A DNA stretch of 56,018 nucleotides from Patescibacteria group bacterium (GCA_041671565.1 JBAZBH010000007.1:1-56018); one strand, 5' to 3'. Shown: positions 6,451-6,896, counted from the first letter of the stretch. Notes: generated by a model from the letters alone, not told the origin. Numbers and translations: made by a program.

Positions 6451-6896
6451 AGATTTAAGATTTAAGAATTAAGATTTAAGAATAAACTCACTTTTATGGC
6501 TAATTCCAACAAAATCAAGAAATTCACCGATTTAGTCGCTTGGCAGGAAGCTCATCAGTTAGTTGTTTTGGTTTATCAAATAACCAAAGGGTTTCCTCGA
6601 GAGGAGATCTTTGGTTTGGTCAGTCAAATGCGCCGAGCAGTCATTTCTATCACTTCTAACTTAGCTGAAGGCTTTGGCCGGCATGGCTATAAAGAAAAGA
6701 TCAACTTTTATTATCTCGCCCAAGGTTCTTTGACTGAATTAAAGAATCAACTGTTGGCCGCTAAAGATGTTGGTTATCTTAGCCGGGCTGACTTTATTAA
6801 GCTAGCCGTACAAGCTAACCAAGCCCATCGCCTGATTCAAGGGTTAATTACCAAATCAAGAACATTCTTAAATCTTAAATCTTAAATCCTAAATCT
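6451..6896. mobile_element. candidate IVS-like cassette: four-helix-bundle gene between 32-bp inverted heptamer arms
   Basis: 6451-6482 vs 6865-6896 match 30/32 as inverted repeats made of AGATTTA units; mobility is inferred. Confidence 0.55.
6496..6885 (+). CDS. four-helix-bundle protein (23S rRNA IVP / Avd-like family)
   Basis: FTDLVAWQEAH, FPREEIFGLVSQMRRAVISITSNLAEG, YYLAQGSLTELKNQL. Confidence 0.92.
   Translation: MANSNKIKKFTDLVAWQEAHQLVVLVYQITKGFPREEIFGLVSQMRRAVISITSNLAEGFGRHGYKEKINFYYLAQGSLTELKNQLLAAKDVGYLSRADFIKLAVQANQAHRLIQGLITKSRTFLNLKS

Follow-up and report, generated by a model that had tools for sequence, protein, structure and literature searches.

The window analysed in this study is a complete contig of 56,018 nt (C7) from the 1.12 Mb, 32-contig genome of a Patescibacteria group bacterium. 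The locus described here (6378–6945) carries the gene of a 129-aa four-helix-bundle (4HB) protein, located on the plus strand at 6496–6885 and belonging to PF05635/TIGR02436. Both of its neighbours are on the minus strand: comEC, recognised by its competence domain, is at 5023–6351 with its promoter region at about 6352–6393, and the gene of a 395-aa protein having a weak fn3 match is at 6958–8145. The 4HB gene is thus divergent from comEC, as the original prediction had stated for this intergenic site, and the cassette, which runs antisense to both neighbours, stands in the spacer that separates the terminator of the 395-aa gene from the comEC promoter.

The gene is enclosed by two inverted arms, which the repeat finder places at 6451–6483 and 6864–6896; each arm is 33 nt long, 31 of the 33 positions (94%) are complementary and the spacing is 380 nt. 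The 30/32 inverted repeat proposed earlier is real and is this same repeat trimmed by one base. The left arm, read on the plus strand (6450–6483), is composed of (AAGATTT) x4.6 (Tandem Repeats Finder, TRF, span 6450–6481) followed by a junction where AAGAAT meets AAACTC, and the right arm (6864–6896, plus strand) is its reverse complement, composed of (TCTTAAA) x4.4 (TRF span 6866–6896). As the arms are tandem heptamer arrays, the stem may also pair in registers shifted by 7 nt (repeats I2–I5). The ATG lies 12 nt past the left arm, and the stop codon TAA (6883–6885) lies inside the right arm, which codes for the last six to seven residues and the stop of the ORF; the C-terminus FLNLKS is, as had been proposed, the repeat in translation. 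An 18-nt pattern of the arm (up to three mismatches) has 6 matches in the window against 0.25 expected, a number which none of 100 shuffles reached.

The left arm is preceded by a promoter module on the plus strand (6378–6446), with the conserved motif GAGTTTAGAATTATTTAATGTTTATTTTAGAATTCGTTAATG at 6403–6446, which in this copy is outside the arm. The promoter scan predicts a -35 element TTTAGA (6407–6412) and, after a gap of 18 nt, a -10 element TAGAAT (6431–6436), a few bases before the left arm. The upstream motif, in its 39-nt form, occurs 10 times in the genome, at least seven times ahead of 4HB genes, and three of the copies (on C6, C7 and C9) are identical. One copy (C1:130568) precedes a RAYT-like gene, a second RAYT-like gene has a looser copy, and 16 nt of the motif of the present gene recur in inverted form in the comEC promoter region (repeat I7). 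The motif of about 40 nt was considered as a cassette-specific signal and rejected, because it also stands before at least one RAYT-like gene and half of it stands before comEC here and in a relative of the same family (G003); it is probably a promoter typical of the lineage.

On the other side of the cassette a G+C-rich hairpin (6905–6942; repeat I8), bordered by runs of A and T, has the appearance of an intrinsic terminator acting in both directions, for the 4HB gene and for the 395-aa gene convergent to it; it was not among the calls of the consensus terminator scan. The presence of a terminator hairpin at the same place after the orthologous gene in four cassette-less relatives (G003, L191, L192 and L194) indicates that it is ancestral to the site and outside the insert. 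In the predicted RNA from 6443 to 6945 a long terminal stem with the ORF looped out, as had been proposed, is found in both the minimum-energy and the centroid structures (z = -5.3), and the terminator hairpin is present in the same fold. Duplex folding of 330-nt flanks gave over-extended pairing. No Rfam family reached its gathering score between 6200 and 7100, where there are only three weak sRNA matches flanking the ORF.

The 129-aa protein matches PF05635 (23S_rRNA_IVP) over residues 12–115 with 119 bits (cut-off 33.8; E 1e-34) and TIGR02436 with 110 bits (cut-off 24; E 5e-32). It is homologous to Xanthomonas campestris XCC0516, whose structure 2GSC (E 1.5e-17) is deposited as five chains, and this homology suggests a pentameric four-helix-bundle assembly. 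The protein is basic (pI 10.0), and so are all 13 of the 13 paralogues in the genome (pI 9.2–10.0). No PADLOC defence-system model matched it at E <= 0.01. The DGR accessory protein Avd is a nucleic-acid-binding pentamer and resembles the present protein in being small, basic and of a related four-helix-bundle fold. The match to the Avd models is weak and below their cut-offs (bAvd/NF033474, E 1e-5 and 7e-5; 23 bits against 80 for NF033474 and 25.9 bits against 40 for PF22296), the reverse transcriptase (RT) genes of the genome are on other contigs (C1, C3, C9 and C23), and, in contrast to avd, the gene has no RT, template repeat or variable repeat beside it; an identity as Avd was therefore rejected. 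The original prediction had further stated that the window is free of transposase, integrase and RT. A search of the contig directed to RT and Y1/RAYT-type transposases gave no match, which agrees with it for these two classes, and elsewhere the genome does carry RT and at least four RAYT-like genes.

The history of the site was followed in five relatives, and the 4HB gene is absent from the orthologous position in all of them (G003, G001, L191, L192 and L194). In four of these relatives (all but G001) the 395-aa gene is followed directly by its terminator and then by comEC. In G003, the comEC of which is 43% identical, the 395-aa orthologue, terminator, promoter-like stretch and comEC follow each other with 98 nt in all, and the metagenome contigs L191, L192 and L194 keep both flanking genes with spacers of about 70–150 nt; G001 has the same flanking genes with an unrelated 588-nt G+C-rich filler between them. 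Alignment of the window with G003 places the extra DNA at about 6394–6903, between the terminator and the comEC promoter. By parsimony over these distant relatives (comEC at most 55% identical), about 510 bp (promoter module and cassette) was probably gained in this lineage. The empty site that the original prediction called for was thus found as gene-less orthologous sites in five distant relatives, with no strain-level pair among them; for a polymorphic filled/empty pair, the metagenome scan reached 68% identity at best and the exact-sequence look-up returned only an identical contig, which is in ENA ERZ27249449.

The same layout is repeated in this genome and in other phyla. The genome has 15 PF05635 matches, and 13 of these 4HB genes lie between inverted arrays of 7–8-nt units with loops of 346–606 nt and a different unit for each, including GTCCGGA, CAGGCCGA, TAGGAGGA, AGTAACT, AATTACG, ATAACAC, TATGGTTT, CTCAAAA and others. 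One exception stands head to head with an RT gene and is probably a DGR avd. For comparison with other genomes, 80 homologous loci were collected, of which 78 were usable, from Patescibacteria, Acidobacteriota, Bacteroidota, Clostridia, Planctomycetota, Chloroflexota, Elusimicrobiota, Proteobacteria and others. The flanking inverted-repeat score was 14 or more in 49 of the 78, representing at least 10 phyla, against none of 160 controls (maximum 11) in which the upstream flank of one locus was paired with the downstream flank of another; as the 80 loci are the closest relatives of this subfamily, this armed fraction need not hold for the whole Pfam family. A lack of arms around other family members had been named as part of what would refute the earlier reading, and arms are present at most of them.

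Period 7 is found in nearly all arms of the homologues and period 8 in a few. Of the 49 armed homologues, about 20 have a right arm that overlaps the ORF end and about 13 a left arm that overlaps the ORF start, so the arm-supplied stop codon is a frequent by-product of tight packing. Orientation was assessable on both flanks at 74 homologous loci: 50 are in sense between co-directional genes and six are antisense to both neighbours. The present copy, antisense to both neighbours and with its own predicted promoter, is atypical in this respect. Its closest homologues are L051 and L052, with tblastn identities of about 69% and 63% (71% and 64% in the alignment used for the unit comparison). Both have GATTTAN-type arms with the stop codon inside the arm and, unlike the copy here, fill the whole space from the stop codon of one gene to the ATG of the following one.

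The arm unit changes along with the protein. The mean rotational Hamming distance between units is 3.4–3.5 at less than 45% protein identity, 2.6 at 55–65% and 1.7 above 65% (51 period-7 cassettes; Spearman -0.17; unit-shuffling permutation p = 0.001). Related hosts are also similar in base composition (G+C), which may inflate this correlation. Across phyla the gene and its arms appear to be inherited as a unit.

The genome-wide distribution of such arrays was obtained with TRF, which reports 826 non-overlapping arrays of period 6–9 (533 of period 7 and 234 of period 8) made from 218 distinct units. At least 224 inverted array pairs are present, mostly with loops below 80 nt. The median arm length is 32 nt at periods 7, 8 and 9 alike, equal to 4.6, 4.0 and 3.5 copies respectively; the constraint is therefore on the length of the stem and not on the copy number, and the idea of one 4HB subunit per repeat unit was rejected on this ground. 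An origin of the 7/8 period from stop codons in all three frames was also considered and rejected, the enrichment of units with both-strand stops being no more than moderate (37% vs 24% for distinct units) and 15–24% of the units being stop-free.

Arrays of the AAGATTT type number 82 and form about 25 gene-less inverted pairs of 73–259 nt, and because these hairpins share their arm family with the cassette, the two are regarded as one repeat system. The AAGATTT hairpins have a polarity and common inner junctions, at which AAGAAT is followed by AAACTCC and CCGAC is followed by ATTCTTAAATC. One gene-less mini-element (C1:169012) has 39 nt identical to the cassette, comprising the arm with its AGAATTA variant unit and the leader. 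The tips of larger hairpins carry nested modules (beginning with CACATAAC and CCAATGNCC) which serve two other 4HB genes as arms. At the ends of the 25 AAGATTT elements there is no visible direct repeat that could be a target-site duplication. The window itself has further gene-less hairpins: at 3957–4045 (AAGTTCA) x5 stands opposite (TTTGAAC) x5, AAGTTCA being one of the two most abundant unit families of the genome (60 arrays), and at 4966–5035, between two comEC-related ORFs, (GAATAGC) x4.3 stands opposite (TATTCGC) x3.7. Among the 20 most abundant unit families, about 11 have a 4HB gene with the same unit. Some housekeeping genes (parB, groES, tig, rpsL and others) also seem to be enclosed by matching arrays; these were set aside, since a complete hairpin element stands on either side of them and they are not in loops. 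The anatomy of the locus as first described is real and goes far beyond chance; the locus is not unique, being one copy in a genome-wide hairpin system of 826 arrays.

Covariation of the genes and arrays was surveyed over Patescibacteria. PF05635 genes were counted in 201 genomes, and arrays in 56 of them, each sampled over 20 kb at fixed positions of contig 1, or over less where the contig was too short. The median density of period-7/8 arrays was 3.5 per 10 kb in genomes with five or more 4HB genes, 0.25 in those with none and 0.0 in those with one, and density followed 4HB copy number over the 56 genomes (Mann-Whitney p = 8e-6; Spearman 0.59), in statistics which ignore phylogeny. Arrays of other periods showed a much smaller difference between 4HB-rich and 4HB-poor genomes, and a very A+T-rich genome without 4HB genes shows that low complexity by itself can produce a few arrays. 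The arrays of 4HB-rich genomes have a median length of 30 nt. No association was found between RT and 4HB richness (7 of 19 vs 12 of 37 genomes), which speaks against a need for RT as in Avd systems and against mobile-DNA load in general as the cause; RT dependence by analogy with Avd was rejected as a general rule, as 12 of the 19 4HB-rich genomes are without RT.

RAYT-like genes behave differently from RT in this survey. At least four genes of the present genome are RAYT-like (HUH-Y1): they show HUH and Y motifs and match NF047646 at E 1e-15 to 4e-23, one of them above the cut-off. RAYT-like genes lie at C1:129891–130520 and C2:5906–6577, among others, and the survey of the 201 genomes lists six matches here. 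Over the 201 genomes RAYT-like genes are present in 28%, 20%, 67% and 88% of those with 0, 1, 2–4 and at least 5 4HB genes respectively (Spearman 0.50, p = 7e-14; Fisher p = 1e-12), again without account of phylogeny. None of the RAYT-like genes of this genome is bracketed by heptamer arrays. Clear RAYT genes of other Patescibacteria have their own non-periodic, G+C-rich REP-type inverted flanks at 6 of 9 assessable loci (inverted-repeat scores 15–31, periodicity about 0.35–0.45), so the cognate repeats of RAYT are probably another family. Genomes with RAYT and no 4HB gene (G041, G057 and G084) have 0–1 arrays per sampled 10–20 kb, which is background, and those with 4HB genes and no RAYT (G088 and G063) still have 2–3 arrays per sampled stretch. 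The link between RAYT and 4HB genes may be functional or may reflect a shared tolerance of hairpin repeats.

Whether the arms act in RNA or in DNA was considered from several features. Both arms of this copy are inside the predicted transcript, the genome has an RNase III gene (C24:12016–12408), and the sense orientation of 50 of 74 homologues fits a dependence on host transcription. Arm mismatches of the G-U and A-C kinds number 11 and 10 in this genome and 66 and 114 across phyla (by locus 21 and 33, not significant), and with no excess of G-U on the sense strand, the trend being if anything the reverse, there is no signature of selection on the sense RNA alone. In at least three paralogues (on C2, at C9:39835 and at C19:9115) the promoter motif is inside the arms; their own mRNA would thus start without the left arm, and a stem would be possible only in read-through RNA or in DNA.

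The closest known counterparts are the intervening sequences (IVS) of 23S rRNA which carry an ORF, as in helix 45 of Coxiella burnetii and in Leptospira, where likewise a PF05635 (‘S23p’) ORF fills the loop of a stem of about 28–33 bp. The rRNA-IVS topology claimed by the original prediction is borne out in that a PF05635 gene is looped out by a long stem, and the Coxiella stem, too, has tandem heptamers: it is a 28-bp stem with GACAGAT x3 next to the ATG, of strain-variable copy number, which RNase III cuts in vitro and in which the ends map to mid-stem (PMC4990558). The Coxiella IVS and the present cassette share tandem heptamers in the start-codon-side arm, a length of about 430–450 nt and a host with an RNase III gene. 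They differ in that excision by RNase III was demonstrated there and is presumed here, and in the presence here of about 25 gene-less hairpins with the same arms. Unlike the rRNA elements, the cassette is bounded by a terminator and a promoter, runs antisense to its neighbours and has a predicted promoter of its own, and since it is outside any rRNA gene (the assembly has no 23S gene) it is called IVS-like and not an IVS. For Candidate Phyla Radiation bacteria, a paper about insertions in rRNA genes mentions the protein only as part of such insertions.

Other repeat systems agree with the present one in part. REPIN-RAYT systems also have hundreds of short intergenic hairpins in families and a low-copy gene flanked by inverted copies of a dispersed repeat, but here the flanked gene codes for a four-helix bundle without HUH/Y1 motifs, the RAYT-like genes are on other contigs, and the arms are tandem 7–8-mers of 218 units and not one conserved REP. 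MITEs and their parent transposons likewise have terminal inverted repeats, and their short gene-less copies share termini with a gene-bearing copy, whereas in the present case the only ORF of the gene-bearing copy is the 129-aa 4HB gene, with no transposase, and no target-site duplication was seen. Tandem heptamer arrays have been described as GGGAATC in Xanthomonas, with 70–75 in convergent pairs (PMC4692102), as TAACTGA in Beggiatoaceae (PMC4679880) and in cyanobacteria (Nostoc). Like the arrays here, these tandem 7-mers lie between genes, frequently form inverted pairs and are numerous in certain lineages. In the passages searched, the papers link no gene family to them; the descriptions are mostly of one dominant unit per genome, against many units here and a 4HB gene inside 13 pairs. 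Xanthomonas also codes for PF05635 proteins, 2GSC being from X. campestris.

Taking these observations together, we consider the chances somewhat better than even that the locus is an insertable cassette of the rRNA-IVS type, in which a basic PF05635 gene is placed between inverted arrays of about 32 nt built from 7-nt units. The cassette would be transcribed from its own promoter with a start just before the left arm, and in vivo the arms would pair to a 33-bp stem closing off the whole ORF, with the start codon 12 nt into the loop and the stop codon in the stem. By analogy with the rRNA elements this stem may be a substrate for the RNase III of the genome, and as cleavage midway along the stem would remove the stop codon, it would be expected to limit the cassette's own expression. 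For copies lying in sense within operons, the same cleavage would cut the insert out of the host transcript. The locus is a typical member of a widespread class, of which our searches found no published description, and it is here in an unusual orientation and in an unusually repeat-laden genome.

An alternative, which we regard as unlikely, is that the arms are mainly DNA-level signals, that is, REPIN-like elements that fold on single-stranded DNA and are cut and joined in trans by RAYT-like HUH-Y1 transposases, with the 4HB gene as cargo or helper. The RAYT-like genes of this genome with their HUH and Y motifs, the rise of RAYT-like presence with 4HB number over the 201 genomes where RT has no such link, and the 4HB-type promoter module upstream of at least one RAYT-like gene (with a looser copy at a second) all speak for it, as do arms that are Watson-Crick on both strands without a sense G-U excess and hairpin modules nested at the tips of other hairpins. 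Against this, four to six enzymes face 218 units, which is difficult to reconcile with sequence-specific recognition; heptamer arrays do not bracket the RAYT-like genes here, clear RAYT genes elsewhere in Patescibacteria have non-periodic REP-type flanks of their own, and array abundance goes with the 4HB gene and not with RAYT in the genomes that have only one of the two.

Less probable again is a reading in which the protein and its arms belong together as cognate partners. Every basic 4HB pentamer would bind the matching unit family, as RNA or DNA, beside its own gene and in the dispersed gene-less arrays, so that the whole would be a regulatory or repeat-maintaining network and not a passive insert. 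Each paralogue has its own unit, about 11 of the 20 top unit families have a matching 4HB gene, units co-diverge with proteins, all 13 paralogues are basic and (by weak matches) related to Avd, and array density follows 4HB copy number. The constancy of the 32-nt arm at periods 7, 8 and 9, with copy number varying, is a misfit to one subunit per unit, however, and among the families that lack a cognate gene the largest (AAAGTTC, 60 arrays) equals the AAGATTT family in size. Random landing in abundant families would give an equal enrichment, the probability that 13 landings all fall in different families being about 0.16 by a hand estimate, and the similar G+C of related hosts could account for part of the protein/unit correlation. 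Mere coincidence, with an ordinary small gene lying between two independent slippage-generated arrays or two separate hairpin elements, is hardly credible: the genome is dense in arrays (0.74 per kb) and parB, groES, tig and rpsL are also apparently bracketed, but neither arm here has a separate partner close by, the layout is seen at 13 of 15 4HB genes compared with a handful among about 1,100 others, and it recurs in 49 of 78 homologues of other phyla against none of 160 controls.

Beyond the IVS-type cassette favoured for this locus, a wider and quite tentative reading, which is doubtful in its full extent, may be put forward. PF05635 proteins and inverted heptamer arrays might be two halves of one pan-bacterial system, in which the arm unit and the basic pentamer of the same cassette are cognate partners and the pentamer, with a host nuclease or one of RAYT type, seeds, maintains or spreads arrays of about 32 nt. 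The rRNA IVS, the operon-wedged cassettes and the heptamers of Xanthomonas, cyanobacteria, Beggiatoaceae and Patescibacteria would then be its products. The pieces are treated separately in the papers searched (PMC4990558, PMC4692102, PMC4679880), and our literature searches found no description of a general link between the 4HB gene family and inverted heptamer arrays.

The data bear upon three puzzles which are decades old, namely the origin of rRNA intervening sequences, the function of the ‘S23p’/four-helix-bundle protein and the abundance of heptamer repeats in some lineages. This locus and its genome, with 15 4HB genes and 826 arrays in 1.1 Mb, tie the three together in a testable form, and one enzyme class (RAYT-like) covaries with the 4HB/array system, in contrast to reverse transcriptase. 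If RNase III does cut at the arms, the cassette is an example of how a small gene is able to reside in any transcribed DNA without doing harm; if the protein recognises its own arms, it would represent a new class of repeat-associated protein.

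RAYT-like HUH-Y1 transposase genes matching NF047646 were located in the genome that carries the window (G000) at C1:129891-130520 and C1:152517-153185 on the minus strand, and at C2:5906-6577 and C4:35653-36207 on the plus strand. The promoter module upstream of the gene at C1:129891 is that of the four-helix-bundle (4HB) genes, and a looser copy of this module lies upstream of the gene at C1:152517, whose stop codon is overlapped by the tandem array (AGTTATAA) x4.5.

About four reverse transcriptase (RT) loci were found in the same genome, and two PF05635-type genes were recorded close to RT genes, in the coordinate pairs C9:5607-5831 and C9:8171-8692, and C1:98897-99046 and C1:97886-98488. 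One of the two PF05635-type genes is in head-to-head arrangement with its RT and lacks arms, and it is therefore probably the avd accessory gene of a diversity-generating retroelement (DGR); the other lies 2.3 kb from an RT, yet 58-nt AT-rich arms are present.

Two near-perfect octamer arrays in the window, (TGTCGGCT) x4 at 51784-51815 and (CTGACGGC) x4 at 53424-53455, are spaced 1.6 kb apart, and a unit related to these octamers builds the arms around the 4HB gene at C9:39835. The window also has two sites with CAGTATT/CTGAATA arrays (48521-48588 and 49600-49683). Gapped arrays of this unit flank the 4HB gene at C1:135857-136168, which was entered as unarmed despite these flanks as arm scoring was ungapped.

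A heptamer hairpin, (GAATAGC)/(TATTCGC), was observed at 4966-5035, between the minus-strand ORFs 5023-6402 and 4081-4944, exactly where the competence-domain ORF of comEC meets a separate ORF with a metallo-beta-lactamase fold; many bacteria encode both parts as a single ComEC polypeptide.

The spacer between the terminator and comEC was also analyzed in relatives having the orthologous 395-aa gene and comEC with no 4HB gene between them. In G001 (C26, ~364-952) the orthologous site is occupied by a 588-nt G+C-rich filler containing several hairpin-like stretches, and this filler gave no Rfam match at the gathering score. In another relative (L192) a near-perfect, non-periodic 20-bp hairpin, GGTTTTAGAACTCAGTTCTGG ATA CCCAGAACTGAGTTCTAAAG, lies in this spacer, ~95-140 nt past the stop of the 395-aa orthologue.

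Another Patescibacteria genome (G096), which carries 8 4HB and 3 RAYT-like genes, showed 38 arrays of period 7/8 per 20 kb (C1:10001-30000), a density above that of G000. Genome-wide in G000, 37% of distinct units carry a stop codon on both strands, against 24% in shuffled units, and because neither 7 nor 8 is divisible by 3, arrays of such units end translation in all frames and in both directions.
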